Source: an uncultured Oscillospiraceae bacterium
GTDB taxonomy: Bacteria; Bacillota; Clostridia; Oscillospirales; Ruminococcaceae
DNA length: 64,000 nucleotides
Assembly (NCBI GenBank): GCA_900553955.1
Contig: USFO01000001.1
Span: 7,530-71,529 of the forward strand
Direction of reading: 5' to 3'
The position numbers and the translations under genes are program-made. The notes beneath the pieces are model-generated. The model did no database searches. It was not told where the DNA came from and saw only the letters and a program-made list of their open reading frames with translations. Below are positions 2,162 through 32,766 of this stretch, in pieces. Position 1 is the first letter of the stretch. Each line of letters begins with the position of its first letter.

Positions 2162-3580
2162 TTATTTCTTGAGGGAAACAGCAGCTGCAGCAGCTACAGA
2201 AACAACAGCGACAGCGGCTACTACGCCCATAACGGACTCAGCACCGGTGTTGGGGTTCTTCTCGCCTTTGTTCTCTGCAGGAACTTTAACAGCGATCTGA
2301 TACTGACCAAGGGTGGTGTTCTCGCCATCGATGGAGAGTTTAACAGTGTCGTTGTAGTCAACAGTCATGTAGTCAACTTTAACTTCTTTGAGAACCTTGC
2401 CATCTTTGATGATGTAGTAGGTTACGACATCCTGCTCTTCGATCTTTTTGCCGAAGAACTCACGGAGCTGGAAGTAGGTCCAATCAAGGTCGAAGTTTAC
2501 GGTGAATTTGGATTTAACAACCTGATCACCATAGAAACCGAACTCAACTTTTCTGTTCTCGCCGTCAACAGCAAGAGCGGTCTTGTTGGCTTCTTTAACT
2601 TCTTTCTCATAGTACTCAAAGTTTACGCCCTTCTGGCCAGCAGCTACGTTGTAGATGGTGACATCGGCGCTCTTTGCAACTCTGTTGTCGTTCTCTTTAG
2701 CGCTGGGATATACGTTAACAGTGATGTTTTTGCCTTCGATAGCACGGAAAGCAGTGGTGGAGATGACTCTGGAGCCCATGATCTGAGCAAGGTCAGCCTG
2801 CTTGTAGCCGTTCACATAGGTCTCGTAATCGGAGTAACCGGTGTCGAAGAGCTCGAGAGCATATTTGTACTCTGCAGCAGATTTTACATACTCGTATGCA
2901 AAGATGGTGATGTCGTTGACGATCTTCATCTCAGTGTAAACGGTCTTCTTGTCTTCAACTCTGAGAGCGGAAACTTTAACGGAACCTTCGGTGAAGGAAG
3001 CGCTGTAGTTAGCAGCAACAGTGAGCTTGAGGATTTTGATCTCGCTGGTGGTCTTTACATAGAACTGAGTGGTCTTGAAGTATTTGTTGAGAGTTTTCGC
3101 AGCATATGCGCACCAGCCATACTGGTCTTTGCCACCTTCGGGAACGCATTTGCTCCAATCAAGGCCATCGGGCTGAGTATCCTTGTCGTATGCAGGGATC
3201 TTGTTAAGCCATTCGTCGATAGCTTTGCCGTCTTTTCTAACTACCTGATATGCAACGCCGTCTACCCATTCCATGGTCTCGGGGTTGTAGTCCATGACTT
3301 CTGCTTTAACAGTGTCATTGCTGTAGGTAGCCTTTACATCCTTGAGGCCGGTGGTGTTGAGTACGAAGTATGCAACGCCGCCTTTAGCACCGTCGGTGTA
3401 GAGAACTTTGTCAGCAGCGGGATCGCCGAGGATGTCAACAGTGTTTTCGAATTTGATGAGCTTTTTGCCGTCATCGGTTTTTTCAACTTTGTTGAGTTCG
3501 ATCTTGGTAAGAGCAAGAGCGGAAACACCAAGGCTGAGAACCATCATGAGAGCAAGAACAAGAGCAACAATCTTTTTCAT
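2162..3580 (-). CDS. cell-wall-anchored surface protein with NPNTG sorting signal (function unknown)
   Basis: RBS aaaggag precedes the ATG at 3580. Signal peptide MKKIVALVLALMMVLSLGVSALA. The C-terminus reads NPNTG + AESVMGVVAAVAVVSVAAAAAV + SLKK (motif, hydrophobic span, basic tail). Confidence 0.65.
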   Translation of the reverse strand: MKKIVALVLALMMVLSLGVSALALTKIELNKVEKTDDGKKLIKFENTVDILGDPAADKVLYTDGAKGGVAYFVLNTTGLKDVKATYSNDTVKAEVMDYNPETMEWVDGVAYQVVRKDGKAIDEWLNKIPAYDKDTQPDGLDWSKCVPEGGKDQYGWCAYAAKTLNKYFKTTQFYVKTTSEIKILKLTVAANYSASFTEGSVKVSALRVEDKKTVYTEMKIVNDITIFAYEYVKSAAEYKYALELFDTGYSDYETYVNGYKQADLAQIMGSRVISTTAFRAIEGKNITVNVYPSAKENDNRVAKSADVTIYNVAAGQKGVNFEYYEKEVKEANKTALAVDGENRKVEFGFYGDQVVKSKFTVNFDLDWTYFQLREFFGKKIEEQDVVTYYIIKDGKVLKEVKVDYMTVDYNDTVKLSIDGENTTLGQYQIAVKVPAENKGEKNPNTGAESVMGVVAAVAVVSVAAAAAVSLKK

Positions 3581-3850
3581 GTTAGTTTCTCCTTTTAAGA
3601 ATAAATTTTGAGCAATTATCAGAACGCCTTCCCTCTCCCGTCGGGCGATCCAATCAGTTTCTAACGGCGATAAATGTTCTTCGCAAAAGGGGTGAAGAGC
3701 TTTTCCTTTGGCTGTAAATCTTTTTAACCGATTTGTAACATTTATCTTGACCATAATATACCACGCTCCAAGAGCTTTGTCAATAGGTTTTTCAGAAAAT
3801 ATTTCATTTTGTAATAACTTTTTTTACGGAAATGATACTTTTGTAAGGAT

Positions 3851-25794: not shown

Positions 25795-25891
25795 TTTTCC
25801 GAATTTACTATTCGATTATAGCGCAAAACACATTTTTTTGCAAACTAAAAGCGGCTTTACCGAAGTAAAGCCGCTTTTGCGCTTGATTTAA

Positions 25892-28800
25892 TTATCCGCG
25901 TTTCTTTTTGCCAAGAATTACTGCCGCAGCAGCAAGAACGGCAACAGCTGCAAAGCCGTTCGGTGCGGGTGCGCCGGTTTCGGGGTTGTTTTCGCCCTTG
26001 TTCTTGTCGCCGCCGATGACGATGTGAATGGTCTGGCTGTTATCGGACAGGCGCGGAATTTCCATTCTCTGCTCAAGGTTGCAAACCTTGCAGTAGCGAA
26101 CCTTTTCGCCCGCTTCGGTTCCGGTGGGCTGCTTTACTATAATCCATTCGCCGAACTGATGAGGTACGACGGGGCTTGCTTTACCCTTTTCGATAAGCTC
26201 GCCGCAGGACTTGCAGTAGGTATCGCCGGTGTAGCCGCTCTCGGTGCAGGTTGCGGCTTTGGCGTTTTTAAGCTCGGTTTCGCCTACATGGTTCTTGGGG
26301 TCCTTGGGGGTTACAATTGTTGTGACTTCGTTCTTTGCGTCCTTATCGGAGTAAAGCTTCTTGCAAACAGTGCATTCCCAATACTCGATGCTGCCCTCCG
26401 CAATGCAGGTGGCTGCTTTTGCGGCATGGTGAACGAGCTTGTGACCGAGAGCCGGAGTATCGACGGTCTTAATCTGCTTTTCAAAGCCGTAGATATTGGC
26501 GCCGAATTCTGCGGTGAACTCAACCTTGCCCTTTTCGGTGCAGGTCGCCTCTTTGAGAGTCTTGGAGGTGACTCTTGCATCTTCGGTGTGAACATGGCTG
26601 TTGTCGTTCTCACAGACTACCTTTCCGGTGAGGGTGCTGTTGTTTGCGCTCCACTCGTAGGTGGGCTTGCCCCACTTATGGCCGATTGCCGGGATTTCAA
26701 CGGTCTTTTCGGCCGCTGCGAACTTGGTAAAGGTTGCAACGAACTTGCCCTCGCCTTTTACTTCGCAGGTTGCCGCTTTAACAACGCTGTAAACGGTGTT
26801 TACGGTTTCGGTTTCAGTGTGGCTCGGATCGCGTTTGCAGGTATGCTTTGCGGTAGCTTCGCTGTTATTGCTGTTCCATGTGTACTCGGTTTCGCCCCAG
26901 TCATGACCGAGAACCGCATTTTCAACTACGGCAGTCTGAGTGGTGAAGCCATATTCATTCTCGCCAAACTCTGCGGTGTAGGTAACCTTGCCCGGAGTGG
27001 TGCAGGTTGCGTTCTCGGTTACGGCGGTGGAGTTCACCGTTTCAGTGTGAACATGGTTTTTGTCGTTCTCGCAGACTACCTTTCCGGTGAGAGTGCTGTG
27101 ATCTGCGCTCCACTCATAGGTGGGCTTGCCCCACTTATGACCGGTCGCCGGGATTTCAACAGTCTTTTCGGTCGCCGCGAACTTGGTGAAGGTTGCCACG
27201 AACTTGCCCTCGCCCTTTACTTCGCAGGTAGCTTCTTTAACTACGCTGTAAACAGCGTCAACGGTTTCGGTTTCGGTCTCGTTCGGGTGCTGTGCGCAGG
27301 AATGAGTTGCGGTTACAGTATTGTTGTCAGCGTTCCAAGTATAGGTGGTTTCGCCCCATTCGTGAGCCTGCCATGCAAGGATGGGATAGCCGCTGTTGAT
27401 GTTCTGCTTATCCATGCGGAAGCTTGCGCCAAGAAGGTCAACCATAGCGGAAGCTTTGAGTTCGGATTCGGTCTTTTCGGTGCCGAAGCCGGTGTTAGCT
27501 GCAAGGCTGTGGCAGCCTTTGAGGTAATAGCAGTTTACAACTGCAGATTCCTTAGTGGTGTCGGAAATTGCGCCGCTTCTGGCTGCGCCGGTTACTTTGC
27601 CGACGTTGTAGCAGTTGGTTATCTGCGGACCTTTGCTCTGCTGAGAGCAAGAGTTAGAGATACCGGAAGCAATTCCGTTCTGGGAAGTTGCAGTAATATT
27701 GCCAACATTGTAGCAATCGGTAATGGTTACGCTTTCAAGCAGCGGGTTCGCAAGGATGCCTGCCACTCTGGAGAAGCCGGTTACTTCAACTGCGGTGAAA
27801 CACTGGCTGATTTTGGTATTCTCATAAGAGAACGCTACCAATCCAGCGGTATATTCTTTGCCGCCGGTAGTTGTTACGCTACCCTTTACGCCAAGTTTGG
27901 TGATAGTTGCAGCTCTTACGGTTCCAAAGAGTGCTTGTCTGCCGTTTGCATTGTTAATATAAAGGTCGCTGATAACATGACCGTTTCCGTCGAATTCGCC
28001 GCTAAACTCCTGATAGTCGTCGCCGATAGGAGTCCAGTTGTAACCGCCGAGGGAAATATCGTTCATCAGCTTTACTTTGCTGATTGCGGTGCCTTTGTTT
28101 ACCTCCGCAGCAATCCATGCAAGCTCTGCGCCGGTTCTTACTTCGTAAACGCCGTCAGCATTGGGGGTTACTTCTGTAGTGGTCTTGCCGTCCCAGATGG
28201 AGGCATCGCCCTTAGTAAGGTTTACAGTAACGGTTTTGCCTGCTGCATCCGCATCAGTAAGAGTGAACTTGCCGTGAGCAGCGACATATCCGTTTGCAAC
28301 TACATCATAGCTGTAATCGCCGATGTTTGCGTTATAAGTTCCGTCTTCGTTCGCTGCAACAACAGCGCCGGTGCCGTCATAAAGGGTTACGACTGCGTTT
28401 GCAGGAGTGCAAACGAATGTTACCTTGATGTCAACAATGGATTTTACGGGAATTGTGATCTCCGGGAGCACGTCTCTTACGTGGTTAGTGGAAACAGCGC
28501 TGAAGTTTGCGCCAACGCCGTTATCAGTAAGAATTCTGTGTCCGCCGAGAGGAGAATCGGTGCCCATAACGTTGAATTTTACATTACCGCCGGAAAGGAC
28601 AACATCGCCTGCACTCTTAGCGGTAAAGATGTATCTGTTGGTGCTGATAAAGTCATACTGACCGCCGCTTGCACTCTTAAATTCAGCGTTATCGGAAAGA
28701 GTATAAGAAACTTTGTGTCCCTGACCAAATCCGGGGTTGTAAATACCGGAGAATTTGGAGATAGGCTGATAAAGTCCATGGAATACAAGTTTGATATCGT

Positions 28801-31201
28801 CGCCCACATAGGCTACATCGCCGCCGCGGGTTACGTTTTCAACGGTGTAAGTCACTTTTGCGGCTCTTACTACCTGATATACGGTCTTGCCGTTCGCAGT
28901 GAACTTCAGAATGTTGTTACCGGTGGCAAGTCCTGCTGCGGTAAAACTGCCGTCTGCATTTTTGCCGACGTTTTTCCAACTTCTGCCCTTATCGGTAGAG
29001 AACTGAACAGTGGGTTCTGCGTCGTCAAGAGTTGCGTTGAAGGAGAAGGCTGCCGCATTGGTAAGGGTATAAACCGTGTCGTACTCGGTATCCCAAATAT
29101 CTTTTGAGCCAACAGCTTTCATGGTAAGTCCGCTGTTATCGCCGCCTACATTGATAACAATAAGGCTGGTACGCTGAGGATCAGTTGCGCCATAAGTGCC
29201 AGAATAGCTGGTGCTGCCGCCGATTTCGATAGCGTCATATCTGACTTCGAGGATGGTAAGACCTTCGGAAACACCTTCAATATCCATCCAGTTGGTCTGT
29301 TCGCCAACGCCGGCGTTACCGGTGCAGCGGTTGGTCGCAGGGGTCATCTTGATATGCTCGCCGCCGGAAATTACGGTGTAGTGGAAATCCGGCTCGATCA
29401 TAATGTTCGCGGTATCACTGTTGATAATCTGCCATGCGCCGCGGTATGCACGGAGTCTGAAGGTTTCACCAACGCCGAGGGAAAGGTTGTTCTGTCCGTT
29501 GACGTTTACCATGGTGCTGCCTTCCATACGCCCTTTAAGGTAGGTGCTGGTAACATTATTTTCTGTGCTTTCGGGGTCTTCATTTTCCGCAAACGTTACG
29601 GTAATGTTCTTATTTCTGCCGCTATCAAAATAGCCGGCTCTGGTTATTTTGCCTTCCATGGAAACGCGGTAGGTAAGGTTGCTGCTGACTGCACGAAGTG
29701 TATGTGTAACAGTTCCATCCTCGTTTTCGGTAGTGGAAGAAACGGGCATTTCTTCAACATTGAAATTCTTAATCTGGCTGAAGAATTTTACGGTTGCGCC
29801 CTTGGGTGCAGTTACAGTGTAATTAACAAGAGAGTTAAGAATGAAGGTCTTCTCTATTGTTTTGCTGGAACCTTCGCCGAAAGTGTTGTTGATGGAAAGT
29901 GCAACGCCATAAGTTTTGGAAAGCTCCTCGTTAAGAGTGATTTTCCAGTTATAAAGCAGTGCATTGCCGTGTGCGAAAAGAAGAGTAGGAGTCATGACGA
30001 AATCGTCGTAACCGTCGTTGTAGATGTACTGAGCACCGGTAACAACGCTCTTCATTTTGCCGGGCATAATGTCGATGGAGTAATCGCCGACTTTCTGCAC
30101 CTTGGGGTTCTCGGTGTAGTAGTTGACTCTTACAAGGGTCATCTTCTGCTCGCTGTGAATCGGCTTGCCGTCCGCGCCGATTTCTACGCTGATAGGTGCT
30201 TCAAAGGTCATTCCGCCGAGGTCGTGGTTGTCCTCGGTATCAACCGCGCGGTAGGAATACATACCGGAAGGAACGGTGATTTCGTAAACATGGTAATTGC
30301 CGCTTACGCCTTTATCAACAACCTTGTCGGCTGCAAGGGCGTTCTGTGCGTCCTCGTCGCTGTAGAAGGTTACGTTGACAGTAGAAGGAGCAACGTTCAC
30401 GGTGATGGTGTATTGTTCATCCCCGGTTGCCGGGAAAGTATAGCCGCAGTGAACGCATTTGCCGTCGCTGCCTCTGGTGCAGGCTTCCTCGCCGGTGCTG
30501 ATAACATAGTCGCACTTTGCACATTTTACGGTTTTGGTGTGATTGCCGTCGTTTTTGGAAACATAGGTGGTATGTTCCTCGTCTCCGGCGCAGGCTTCCT
30601 CGCTGGTGCTGATAACTTCGCCGCACTTTTTGCAGGTAACGGTTACGGTGTGGTTACCGTCGCCCTTTGCGGTGTAGGAAGTTTCGGTTTCGGTGCCGAC
30701 GTGGTCGCACTCCTTGGCAGGGAAAACAGTAACAACAGTTTCTTTTACCTCGCCTTCAGGAATGTCTACATCAGCGGTTGCACCGCCAAAAATCTTTGTT
30801 CCGAACTTTGCTTCTGTTTTTGCTGCTATATCTTCTTTTGCAGTAAATACAACAGTCGCAATAGTTTCGCCCGCTGCAACAGCGCCCTTCATGTTCATAT
30901 TGGTAAGGCCAATCTGAAGATAGCTGCCGTTTTCATCGGTCATGGTGTCTTTTCTTACTGTAATGTCGCTGTTATTAGAAGCAACAGACTTTACAGTAAA
31001 CAAATCTGCGTTGAAGTAAAGCCTTGTTTCAAGAGCGATAAGCCCTGAATACGCTTCATCAACAGTGACATCAATTGTAACATCCTCGCCAGCCTTCACG
31101 GTGGAAGGAGTGACGGTGGGAGTTGCATTTATTGCAAAGGCAGAAATTCCGGTGCTGCACACCATAATAACTGCAAGCAATAAAGAAATCAGTTTTTTCA
31201 T
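25892..31201 (-). CDS. giant (1769 aa) cell-wall-anchored surface protein with a cohesin-like N-terminal module, GLUG-motif region, Cys-rich tandem repeats and an NPETG sorting signal
   Basis: RBS aaggagg. Signal peptide MKKLISLLLAVIMVCSTGISAFA. Cohesin-like beta-sandwich pattern at residues ~25-170. GLUG-like repeats (RQALFG, TAGLVAF, VAGILAN). C-terminus NPETG + hydrophobic span + KKKRG. Confidence 0.8.
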   Translation of the reverse strand: MKKLISLLLAVIMVCSTGISAFAINATPTVTPSTVKAGEDVTIDVTVDEAYSGLIALETRLYFNADLFTVKSVASNNSDITVRKDTMTDENGSYLQIGLTNMNMKGAVAAGETIATVVFTAKEDIAAKTEAKFGTKIFGGATADVDIPEGEVKETVVTVFPAKECDHVGTETETSYTAKGDGNHTVTVTCKKCGEVISTSEEACAGDEEHTTYVSKNDGNHTKTVKCAKCDYVISTGEEACTRGSDGKCVHCGYTFPATGDEQYTITVNVAPSTVNVTFYSDEDAQNALAADKVVDKGVSGNYHVYEITVPSGMYSYRAVDTEDNHDLGGMTFEAPISVEIGADGKPIHSEQKMTLVRVNYYTENPKVQKVGDYSIDIMPGKMKSVVTGAQYIYNDGYDDFVMTPTLLFAHGNALLYNWKITLNEELSKTYGVALSINNTFGEGSSKTIEKTFILNSLVNYTVTAPKGATVKFFSQIKNFNVEEMPVSSTTENEDGTVTHTLRAVSSNLTYRVSMEGKITRAGYFDSGRNKNITVTFAENEDPESTENNVTSTYLKGRMEGSTMVNVNGQNNLSLGVGETFRLRAYRGAWQIINSDTANIMIEPDFHYTVISGGEHIKMTPATNRCTGNAGVGEQTNWMDIEGVSEGLTILEVRYDAIEIGGSTSYSGTYGATDPQRTSLIVINVGGDNSGLTMKAVGSKDIWDTEYDTVYTLTNAAAFSFNATLDDAEPTVQFSTDKGRSWKNVGKNADGSFTAAGLATGNNILKFTANGKTVYQVVRAAKVTYTVENVTRGGDVAYVGDDIKLVFHGLYQPISKFSGIYNPGFGQGHKVSYTLSDNAEFKSASGGQYDFISTNRYIFTAKSAGDVVLSGGNVKFNVMGTDSPLGGHRILTDNGVGANFSAVSTNHVRDVLPEITIPVKSIVDIKVTFVCTPANAVVTLYDGTGAVVAANEDGTYNANIGDYSYDVVANGYVAAHGKFTLTDADAAGKTVTVNLTKGDASIWDGKTTTEVTPNADGVYEVRTGAELAWIAAEVNKGTAISKVKLMNDISLGGYNWTPIGDDYQEFSGEFDGNGHVISDLYINNANGRQALFGTVRAATITKLGVKGSVTTTGGKEYTAGLVAFSYENTKISQCFTAVEVTGFSRVAGILANPLLESVTITDCYNVGNITATSQNGIASGISNSCSQQSKGPQITNCYNVGKVTGAARSGAISDTTKESAVVNCYYLKGCHSLAANTGFGTEKTESELKASAMVDLLGASFRMDKQNINSGYPILAWQAHEWGETTYTWNADNNTVTATHSCAQHPNETETETVDAVYSVVKEATCEVKGEGKFVATFTKFAATEKTVEIPATGHKWGKPTYEWSADHSTLTGKVVCENDKNHVHTETVNSTAVTENATCTTPGKVTYTAEFGENEYGFTTQTAVVENAVLGHDWGETEYTWNSNNSEATAKHTCKRDPSHTETETVNTVYSVVKAATCEVKGEGKFVATFTKFAAAEKTVEIPAIGHKWGKPTYEWSANNSTLTGKVVCENDNSHVHTEDARVTSKTLKEATCTEKGKVEFTAEFGANIYGFEKQIKTVDTPALGHKLVHHAAKAATCIAEGSIEYWECTVCKKLYSDKDAKNEVTTIVTPKDPKNHVGETELKNAKAATCTESGYTGDTYCKSCGELIEKGKASPVVPHQFGEWIIVKQPTGTEAGEKVRYCKVCNLEQRMEIPRLSDNSQTIHIVIGGDKNKGENNPETGAPAPNGFAAVAVLAAAAVILGKKKRG
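26435..27364 (-). repeat. two tandem ~470-bp intragenic repeats (~90% nt identity) encoding ~155-aa Cys-containing modules
   Basis: DNA around 26620-26880 and 27040-27300 is near-identical. The protein repeats run HEWGETTYTWN...AVLG and HDWGETEYTWN...ALGHK. Confidence 0.7.
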
Positions 31202-31219
31202 TTCTTTTGCCAGACCTCC

Positions 31220-32341
31220 TTAATTTTCAGCCTTGAATTTATCTATAAGACCGTTATAATACTTTATCATATCTATAACGTCAAAAAGATTGACTTTTCC
31301 GTCACCGGTAACGTCTGCGGCTTTCAACTGCTCGTCAGAAAGTGCATTTCCGGTTCCGTTATAATGTCTTATCATCGCGATTATGTCAAACAGGTTTACC
31401 TTACCATCACCTGTCAAATCGCCGTAAACAACATTACCGCTGCCGCCCTCTACAACAACCTTGCAATATGCCGGAGAAGAAACAATCTCTTCCTCATATT
31501 CAACGCCAAGCTCGCCGTAAGCCCAAAGGTAGTAAACGCCGCCTTTGTCAAAAGTGATCTTCGCTTTGCCGTTTGCATCGGTGATTACGGTTTGTGCGCT
31601 TTCCTCATCATAAAGCTCCTTGCCGTAATATATCTTGCTGTTTGCGGAGGGCGTACCTACACCGGTAGTTCCTTGATCTATGTTGCCAAAAATCCTTGTG
31701 TAGCTTATTTCCAAGGGTTCGCCGGCTTTTGCCGCATACTCGTGAGTTATGTTGCCTTTTTCATCAAGGAAATAGTGGAAGCCCGCCGCCGGGTCAGAGT
31801 AAAAGCTCCAGCTTTCATACATGGTAACATCGATAAAATCCCCATCGTTAAGCGCAATTACATCTGCGGTTGCGCCCATGTTCGGACCAAGGGTCGGGTC
31901 CATGGGATAATCGCCGTTTACATAGTAGAGCAGGTTTTCATCATGTCCCCAAAACCCATATTTCATATACATACTATGGGGGCTTCCCTCGATTTGCAGT
32001 TCTCTTGCCGTTCCGTGATAGTATTTATTAAGAACATAAAGATAAAGTTGAAGCACCGTAATATCGTACTTTCCGTTCTTGTCCTCATCGTGATAATACT
32101 CCTGAAGATTATAGTCTTCAAGCTTTATATTGCGAAGCTCGGCAAGGTTAACCGGAACATACGCCATAATCGTGCCTGCGTCAACGCCGTCGCTGACAAC
32201 ATACCTATCATCCTTGCTTATGGATATGTAAGCGGTTCCATTTACCTCCTCATATTCATACTCCTCCGCGGCAAGCACCGTTACAGGAAGCACTCCAACC
32301 GCCATAATTACGGCGAGAATGAGTGCCAATAATTTTTTCAT
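31220..32341 (-). CDS. secreted dockerin-containing protein (N-terminal module of unknown function plus C-terminal type-I dockerin)
   Basis: Signal peptide MKKLLALILAVIMAVGVLPVTVLA. Two Ca-binding dockerin repeats: GDLTGDGKVNLFDIIAMIRHY and ADVTGDGKVNLFDVIDMIKYY. 18-nt spacing to the downstream giant gene. Confidence 0.75.
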   Translation of the reverse strand: MKKLLALILAVIMAVGVLPVTVLAAEEYEYEEVNGTAYISISKDDRYVVSDGVDAGTIMAYVPVNLAELRNIKLEDYNLQEYYHDEDKNGKYDITVLQLYLYVLNKYYHGTARELQIEGSPHSMYMKYGFWGHDENLLYYVNGDYPMDPTLGPNMGATADVIALNDGDFIDVTMYESWSFYSDPAAGFHYFLDEKGNITHEYAAKAGEPLEISYTRIFGNIDQGTTGVGTPSANSKIYYGKELYDEESAQTVITDANGKAKITFDKGGVYYLWAYGELGVEYEEEIVSSPAYCKVVVEGGSGNVVYGDLTGDGKVNLFDIIAMIRHYNGTGNALSDEQLKAADVTGDGKVNLFDVIDMIKYYNGLIDKFKAEN

Positions 32342-32730
32342 TGTCCCCCTTCTTTCGTTCGGAATTGTGAATGCACAAAAAATGCCTTGCTCAAATAAAT
32401 CCTTCGGAATTTACTTAAGCAAAGCATTTTCCACGGCATACTGCCGATACGGTATGATACATGCTCAACAATAAGTCTCCTAGCTATGCTTCAACGCAAT
32501 TCCCTCGCCTTCTCACGGCTTTTACCGCAATGACACAAATGAGGGATTGCTCCGCAATACAGTTGCCTCTTTGAAATCTCAAAGAGCCAGTGCGCTCGCC
32601 CAAAACAGGCTCTCTTTTCGCGCGTTCCTCTGGATTATAGATAAGTATTTTTTCGCACATTCGTACATTTATATAATACTGCATTTCATCGTTTTTTGCA
32701 ATAGCTTTAGCGCTTTTTTTAATACTGTGA

Positions 32731-32766
32731 ACAAAAAAGGCAAGCTCTGCAGCTTGCCTTTTTTAT
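32731..32766 (-). terminator. intrinsic terminator downstream of tuf
   Basis: Palindrome ggcaagct ctgc agcttgcc flanked by A/T runs. Confidence 0.7.

Follow-up and report, generated by a model that had tools for sequence, protein, structure and literature searches.

A cohesin–dockerin gene pair behind a cobalamin riboswitch-like leader in gut Oscillospiraceae, a candidate surface module for corrinoid capture

A dockerin gene and a giant cohesin gene lie behind a structured leader

In a 64-kb stretch of DNA (the window; contig USFO01000001.1) from an uncultured human-gut Oscillospiraceae bacterium, whose closest genome record is an uncultured Oscillospiraceae metagenome-assembled genome from Hadza gut samples, we analysed a pair of genes located between tuf and an aldo/keto reductase gene. 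The first encodes a 373-aa protein with a signal peptide and a C-terminal dockerin (the cargo) and the second a 1769-aa protein with an N-terminal cohesin module and a C-terminal sorting signal (the giant protein). The pair follows a leader that we take to be a cobalamin (vitamin B12) riboswitch, and together these elements may form a B12-repressed surface module. The initial annotation of this DNA had overlooked the ∼330-nt leader with its cobalamin riboswitch and had given the cargo no identity.

The pair occupies the same position in 12 related contigs, in the order rpoB-rpoC-rpsL-rpsG-fusA-tuf-[cargo]-[giant]-aldo/keto reductase. In coding-strand order, the features of the locus are:

About 32733–32760: terminator 3′ of tuf.
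32673–32701, minus strand: promoter-like site (TTGCAA, 17-nt spacer, TATTAT), a consensus match alone (9/12 matches in a consensus scan).
32453–32654, minus strand: cobalamin riboswitch aptamer (RF00174-like) with B12 box AGCUAGGAGAC, within the ∼330-nt leader.
32373–32432, minus strand: terminator-like hairpin of ∼20 bp with a U-tract (terminator scan, sequence), directly 5′ of the cargo ribosome-binding site; putative expression platform.
31220–32341, minus strand: cargo gene (open reading frame, ORF), encoding the signal peptide, an N-module (aa ∼26–300) and a type I dockerin.
31215–31220, minus strand: AGGAGG, which overlaps the stop codon of the cargo gene and was read from the sequence as the giant-gene ribosome-binding site.
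25892–31201, minus strand: giant gene (ORF), with orthologues at the same position in 12 loci.
25846–25879, no strand assigned: strong bidirectional intrinsic terminator (15-bp stem and T-tract; terminator scan, sequence) that would close the operon.

This order of predicted signals is that of a two-gene operon. The terminator scan found no terminator in the 18-nt junction between cargo and giant genes, and the two are probably co-transcribed.

The leader matches the cobalamin riboswitch family near its threshold

The aptamer, 3′ of the promoter-like site and 5′ of the cargo ribosome-binding site, matched the full RF00174 model (positions 1–189) with 28.2 bits (E = 2.3e-5), slightly below the curated gathering score of 31.5 bits. 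The orthologous element reached this threshold in 10/13 related loci, with 31.9–44.3 bits (L002, 31.9; L006, 32.8; L008, 33.5; L011, 33.0; L016, 35.1; L017, 35.3; L018, 35.8; L096, 35.3; L097, 44.3; L098, 33.1), and the L013 leader scored 29.9 bits. Where the window has the B12 box AGCUAGGAGAC, most orthologues have AGCCAGGAGAC; the other conserved core motifs found in the leader were GAGGAAC, CAACUGUA and GAGAAGGCG. Column identity across 12 leaders was 83%, which is higher than for the encoded proteins downstream. In their consensus fold, both partners had changed in a compensatory way at eight pairs, and few pairs were broken; the covariation sample is shallow (12 leaders) and its members are related to each other. 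The terminator-like hairpin was kept in the 12 leaders, with G-U/A-U wobble changes. We interpret the leader as a true, though divergent, cobalamin riboswitch, probably of the transcription-terminating type.

The riboswitch was also considered as a trait of the whole cargo family and was rejected as such, since distant relatives lack the element; these members sit in MoxR/transglutaminase-type operons. The B12 link, at the level of regulation, is therefore established for the tuf-linked clade only.

Separately, a canonical and very strong cobalamin riboswitch (109.7 bits) was observed in L015 (10804–10983, plus strand), ∼1 kb 3′ of a GH25 gene and of P0043, a cargo homologue fused to Big_2. 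The ∼370 nt that separate it from rpsO contain no called gene.

The cargo ends in a type I dockerin

Three parts of the cargo were distinguished:

31778–32266, minus strand: N-subdomain (aa ∼26–188), which includes a beta-grasp half and belongs to a family without a Pfam model.
31448–31777, minus strand: second subdomain (aa ∼189–298), a DUF4198/NikK-like beta-sandwich.
31259–31426, minus strand: type I dockerin (aa 306–361) with two near-identical Ca-binding repeats.

The dockerin, already recognised in the initial annotation, matched PF00404 with 44.8 bits (gathering score 22.9). Its Ca-binding repeats, DLTGDGKVNLFD and DVTGDGKVNLFD, are EF-hand-like, with Asp/Asn at positions 1, 3, 5, 9 and 12 and a helix after each. 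Among 41 orthologous dockerins the Ca ligands at positions 1, 5 and 12 were invariant, and variability was highest at positions 10, 11, 14, 16 and 18. In type I dockerins, the variable positions form the cohesin-contacting face. The cargo has 91 homologues. Its AlphaFold2 (AF2) model (predicted local distance difference test score (pLDDT) 87.7) placed helices at 317–328, 336–342 and 352–362 in the dockerin, which superimposes on solved dockerins; in agreement, the family profile matched dockerins in the PDB (best E = 3.8e-18).

The giant protein carries a cohesin at the end of a variable stalk

The giant protein was divided into the following regions:

30707–31132, minus strand: cohesin module (aa 24–165), directly after the signal peptide (PF00963, AF2, fold search).
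30437–30706, minus strand: Cys-rich CxxC repeats (aa 166–255), zinc-ribbon-like, with zinc-ribbon Pfam matches below threshold only; conserved in orthologues.
28442–30436, minus strand: conserved beta-rich body (aa 256–920), with 59–98% identity among orthologues and 70% mean column identity.
27365–28441, minus strand: variable, strain-dependent block (aa ∼921–1279) with GLUG-like repeats.
26102–27364, minus strand: tandem ∼150-aa repeats containing H-x-W-G and Cys (aa ∼1280–1700), from internal and between-strain BLAST.
25895–25987, minus strand: NPETG sorting signal, hydrophobic segment and KKKRG tail (aa 1739–1769).

The initial annotation had proposed a cohesin-like N-terminus and had allowed that no cohesin fold might be predicted there. 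When aa 1–164 were scanned alone, PF00963 matched with 31.6 bits against a gathering score of 24.1, and the AF2 model (pLDDT 91.7; 12 strands) predicted at high confidence the jelly-roll beta-sandwich of cohesins, which in solved members is nine-stranded. The 20 best Foldseek matches in the PDB were all cohesins (template modelling scores 0.52–0.71), with 2JH2/2VO8 from Clostridium perfringens and 2XDH from Archaeoglobus among them. A direct sequence search of the segment against the PDB returned no cohesin. Pfam likewise missed the module when the complete giant protein was scanned, and none of the orthologues has it in its precomputed annotation, so similar systems are likely to be unannotated at present.

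Beyond the cohesin, Pfam and NCBIfam gave no match at threshold on eight segments of the giant protein. The conserved body had no Pfam or PDB sequence match, and a profile of aa 251–950 also found nothing in the PDB. The initial annotation had described GLUG-motif and CxxC-rich repeats: the CxxC repeats stand, and the other block is no more than GLUG-like, with a non-significant match to PF07581 (E = 0.42). This block (∼360 aa) is present in the window, L011 and L013 and absent from L002, L006 and L008, and the ∼150-aa repeats differ in copy number among strains. The stalk is therefore variable in length between close strains.

The cell-wall sorting signal described earlier is complete in its three parts (NPETG-APAPNGFAAVAVLAAAAVILG-KKKRG), and NPETG is kept in all complete orthologues. 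NCBIfam model NF033846 matched the C-terminus (aa 1739–1768) with 17 bits (E = 0.0054), below its cutoff of 23.5, and no sortase gene was found in the window. A second secreted protein in the window (2162–3754, minus strand; ∼470 aa from an internal MKK start) ends in NPNTG, a hydrophobic stretch and KK, which suggests that NPxTG is the general sorting motif of this organism. The layout of the giant protein is that of a stalk on which the N-terminal cohesin would stand well away from the wall.

Dockerin and cohesin types match across strains

We compared four modules (cargo N-module, dockerin, cohesin and giant body) over 12 loci. The identity matrices of dockerin and cohesin were strongly correlated (r = 0.82, Mantel P = 1e-4), while each was uncorrelated with the rest of its own protein (dockerin versus N-module, r = −0.02; cohesin versus giant body, r = −0.07). 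The loci fell into matched types A (window, L002), B (L008, L011, L013), C (L006, L016, L098), D (L096), E (L018, L097) and E′ (L099), and none of the 12 had a mismatched dockerin and cohesin. The exchanges are seen most directly in individual loci. The L016 cargo N-module is 99% identical to that of the window, but its dockerin (47%) and cohesin (40%) are of type C. The L013 N-module is at most ∼39% identical to any other, and its dockerin and cohesin are 100% and 98% identical to those of L011. Between L006 and L099, both flanking modules are 90% identical, with only 40% identity in the dockerin and 43% in the cohesin.

These data indicate that dockerin and cohesin travel between strains as a cassette. 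The best explanation of the pattern is that at least five matched specificity types are exchanged as a contiguous unit of dockerin, junction, signal peptide and cohesin. We regard binding of the dockerin to the neighbouring cohesin as a strong inference, and the matched types support the cognate pairing of anchored cohesin and dockerin proposed in the initial annotation. Lineages with ∼30% cargo identity also have this gene order, in which a cohesin protein recognised by Pfam comes after a homologue with a dockerin.

In some distant lineages (L029, L090 and L091), the downstream cohesin proteins (690–870 aa) themselves end in a dockerin-like repeat pair. These would be adaptors and not anchors, and multi-tier assemblies are therefore implied in those organisms.

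The cargo N-module resembles corrinoid-binding proteins in fold

The beta-grasp half of the N-subdomain carries the conserved motif FWGHDENL...YYVNG...GATAD...DGDFIDV, and in model comparison its fold resembles the transcobalamin beta-domain, a likeness in fold alone. Fold-match figures for the cargo were 8.6 with haptocorrin, 8.1 with intrinsic factor, 8.1 with transcobalamin and 7.9 with the isolated transcobalamin beta-domain; for the second subdomain they were 8.6 with the Ni-binding DUF4198 protein NikK and 8.0 with the metal-binding Zcp. As modelled, the cargo thus resembles a transcobalamin beta-domain/DUF4430 fold joined to a DUF4198 fold.

A link at the level of sequence to DUF4430 or transcobalamin was rejected, since profile, Pfam, exhaustive-profile and isolated-half searches were all negative. 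DUF4430 (PF14478) had no Pfam match in the full cargo, the isolated N-module or 40 family members, nor did any of 10 isolated beta-grasp halves match it when E values up to 10 were allowed. Direct search of the N-module against the PDB gave nothing significant, and the family profile found dockerins only there and no transcobalamin. One of 42 family members did match DUF4430 (E = 4e-8); it was not located among them and is not P0100, P0107 or P0131. By exhaustive profile search, the N-modules form a separate family of 611 cluster representatives that does not merge with DUF4430.

Members of this family bear dockerin, SLH, CWB2, Big_2 or cohesin modules, and the N-module therefore appears to be a unit for surface display whose anchor can be exchanged. 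In a single distant lineage, the gene after a dockerin-bearing homologue encodes a giant protein that includes a DUF4465 domain, a family for which B12 binding has been shown experimentally (PMC13398666). Based on the models, the cargo N-module would most likely bind a corrinoid and hold it at the cell surface.

Two further observations concern the family. P0107 (aa 325–423 and 579–677) and P0131 (aa 615–716) contain extra copies of the beta-grasp half alone (profile positions ∼57–154), so this half is apparently an independent unit of ∼100 aa. In L012 (1–9635) and L014 (1–9911), distant members are SLH-fused or combine cohesin, cargo module and dockerin in one chain, and the operons encode a MoxR-like AAA protein, a 379-aa protein, a transglutaminase (TgpA-like) and a 1500-aa surface protein, with the cargo-family gene last.

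Gene calling and an apparent effector fusion at the locus

Minus-strand calls in several contigs with an identical cargo raised the possibility that the giant gene is inverted or phase-variable, which was rejected. By DNA comparison these contigs are collinear (99.6–99.99% identity), with small indels and repeat copy number as the only differences, and a plus-strand ORF is cut short by a frameshift. Long antisense ORFs lie within the giant gene (26024–29107 and 29354–31048, plus strand; 1027 and 564 aa), and because of these and the frameshifts the ‘inverted’ giant genes are gene-calling artefacts. In L007, L009, L010 and L013, antisense ORFs were annotated in place of the real, frameshifted gene, and the cohesin protein is thus unannotated. 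Tandem Repeats Finder detected no DNA-level repeats in the gene pair.

In P0004, a 175-aa protein on a 6262-nt contig shared with a partial cargo (P0041), the giant protein's signal peptide and first ∼35 cohesin residues are joined to a TIR effector domain of the CAP12/Pycsar type (PF10137, 106 bits). The fusion reflects either chimeric assembly or, in one strain, insertion of a defence gene at this locus.

Proposed mechanism and alternatives

We propose, with moderate confidence, that the locus encodes a B12-repressed, cohesin–dockerin-mounted surface module whose cargo captures corrinoid. When corrinoid is plentiful, the riboswitch and the terminator hairpin would end transcription in the leader, so that cargo and stalk would be produced when B12 is limiting. 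When corrinoid is scarce, the riboswitch would permit read-through, and cargo and stalk would be secreted. Sortase would probably fix the 1769-aa stalk to the cell wall via its C-terminal NPETG, leaving the single predicted cohesin displayed at the far N-terminal end. The cargo dockerin is expected to plug into this cohesin in a Ca2+-dependent manner, as the matched types suggest, and the transcobalamin-beta-like beta-grasp and DUF4198-like sandwich would then capture corrinoid at the surface and pass it to a membrane importer encoded elsewhere.

Several observations weigh against this proposal. The leader scores all lie near the threshold, and a 53-nt insertion replaces part of the RF00174 model. 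The riboswitch is absent 5′ of the SLH-, Big_2- and cohesin-fused relatives and of the ∼30%-identical dockerin relatives. Generic beta-grasp proteins give nearly equal fold scores to the cargo. Finally, because dockerin, junction, signal peptide and cohesin are contiguous (∼750 nt), one recombination tract would move all of them together.

The same display and the same membership of a B12 regulon would be expected if the cargo bound a metal, as Co2+ or Ni2+, in place of a corrinoid; B12 riboswitch regulons commonly include cobalt uptake components. However, the DUF4198 matches are below threshold and cover just the last ∼45 model residues, the transcobalamin-like fold matches score as high, and holding a soluble ion at the end of a 1700-aa stalk would presumably bring little benefit. 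We consider a metal ligand unlikely.

The matched types would also arise if the dockerin did not bind its neighbour but had partners elsewhere, and the types reflected linkage within a single recombination tract. In keeping with this, the signal peptide switches type alongside the two modules, and of this genome the data cover the window alone, with further cohesins or dockerins possible elsewhere in it. Yet no mismatch has arisen in the 12 loci despite repeated recombination that uncoupled both modules from their own proteins, and the two diverge in parallel and by degrees (dockerin and cohesin identities of 71% and 60% for D versus B, and of 76% and 72% for the type C variants). The gene order recurs at only ∼30% cargo identity, and the relative P0091 has cohesin, cargo module and dockerin on one chain. 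Linkage without binding thus also appears unlikely to us.

A third alternative is a generic adhesin or surface-decoration locus unrelated to B12, in which the Rfam matches would be borderline false positives on some other structured leader. The near-threshold scores, with that of the window below the gathering score, and the riboswitch-free distant members would fit this view, and the giant protein does resemble a fibrillar-adhesin stalk. However, the matches span the whole model on the right strand, and in every case they sit in the 5′ leader ahead of a terminator and a ribosome-binding site; the B12 box is kept, the best locus scores 44.3 bits and the paired positions show compensatory changes. 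The transcobalamin-like fold and the DUF4465 neighbour in a distant lineage point independently to B12. We therefore judge this explanation improbable. A component of a cellulosome, amylosome or other polysaccharide-degrading complex, as a type I dockerin with a cohesin in an Oscillospiraceae (Ruminococcaceae) lineage might suggest, is very improbable, since neither protein has a glycoside hydrolase or carbohydrate-binding module (CBM) match at any threshold (the initial annotation had already seen no recognisable glycoside hydrolase in the cargo module), there is one cohesin and no array, and the operon appears riboswitch-regulated.

Relation to known systems and significance

Among the closest parallels to the proposed B12-regulated module are the anchoring scaffoldins of ruminococcal cellulosomes and amylosomes (such as Ruminococcus flavefaciens ScaE and R. 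bromii Sca, PMC4611034), in which a wall-attached cohesin captures secreted dockerin proteins. These share the type I-like dockerin with two near-identical repeats and the Oscillospiraceae lineage. In contrast, the locus described here has a single cohesin tipping a 1769-aa non-catalytic stalk, one dedicated cargo gene immediately upstream, no carbohydrate-active enzyme or CBM, apparent cobalamin riboswitch control, an NPETG anchor and matched types that differ between strains. The C. perfringens GH84/GH33 toxin complexes (2JH2, 2VO8, 2W1N) and Archaeoglobus 2XDH are further examples of docking outside plant-fibre degradation, and their cohesins are the best structural matches of the window cohesin model; those pairs join enzymes together, whereas here a putative ligand-binding protein would sit on a wall-anchored stalk under vitamin regulation. 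The R. bromii amylosome is likewise cohesin–dockerin docking outside cellulose degradation (PMC4611034). Non-cellulosic docking and NPxTG anchoring, both put forward as novel in the initial annotation, are therefore not new, since such pairs are established (2JH2/2VO8, 2XDH and the amylosome) and an NCBIfam model for the anchor (NF033846) already exists.

On the ligand side, the BtuG, BtuH and BtuJ/DUF4465 relay of Bacteroides thetaiotaomicron consists of B12-riboswitch-regulated surface accessory proteins that are made under B12 limitation and capture corrinoids outside the cell (PMC13616437, PMC13398666), and its DUF4465 domain also occurs in the distant relative of our locus. The Bacteroides proteins are outer-membrane lipoproteins with beta-propeller or beta-jelly roll folds that deliver to BtuB, whereas our models propose, in a Gram-positive organism, a transcobalamin-beta-like binder held non-covalently by cohesin–dockerin on a sortase substrate. 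The cargo has no detectable sequence similarity to the beta-domain of transcobalamin, intrinsic factor and haptocorrin or to bacterial DUF4430 (5NO0, 2BB6, 2PMV, 4KKJ, 3U7Z); it differs from this group by an added N-terminal extension and by a DUF4198-like sandwich that replaces the alpha6-alpha6 barrel.

In the literature that we searched, we found no cobalamin riboswitch controlling a cohesin–dockerin pair, no transcobalamin-like cargo and no matched cohesin–dockerin cassettes swapped between strains. Searches combining dockerin with cobalamin riboswitches, DUF4430 with cobalamin, and transcobalamin-like with riboswitch gave nothing relevant, and vitamin B12 with dockerin returned unrelated co-mentions.

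According to a 2026 review, extracellular cobamide capture has yet to be characterised in Gram-positive bacteria (PMC13616437). The locus suggests a way in which Gram-positive bacteria of the gut could hold vitamin-scavenging proteins at their surface, and it offers a concrete and cheaply testable answer, namely a non-covalent binder at the tip of a sortase-anchored stalk that would be produced only when B12 is scarce. It would also define a surface-module family without a Pfam model (611 cluster representatives), and the at least five matched cohesin–dockerin types in near-isogenic backgrounds would be useful for specificity studies and protein engineering. Tentatively, and with a rather low probability, the types may be strain-specific locks and keys under selection, such that a secreted B12-capturing protein re-docks on cells of its own type only; if true, they would privatise the scavenged vitamin in the crowded gut, as a kin-discriminating form of cohesin–dockerin specificity. 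If the proposed capture of corrinoid is correct, the locus would extend cohesin–dockerin biology from polysaccharide degradation to competition for micronutrients.

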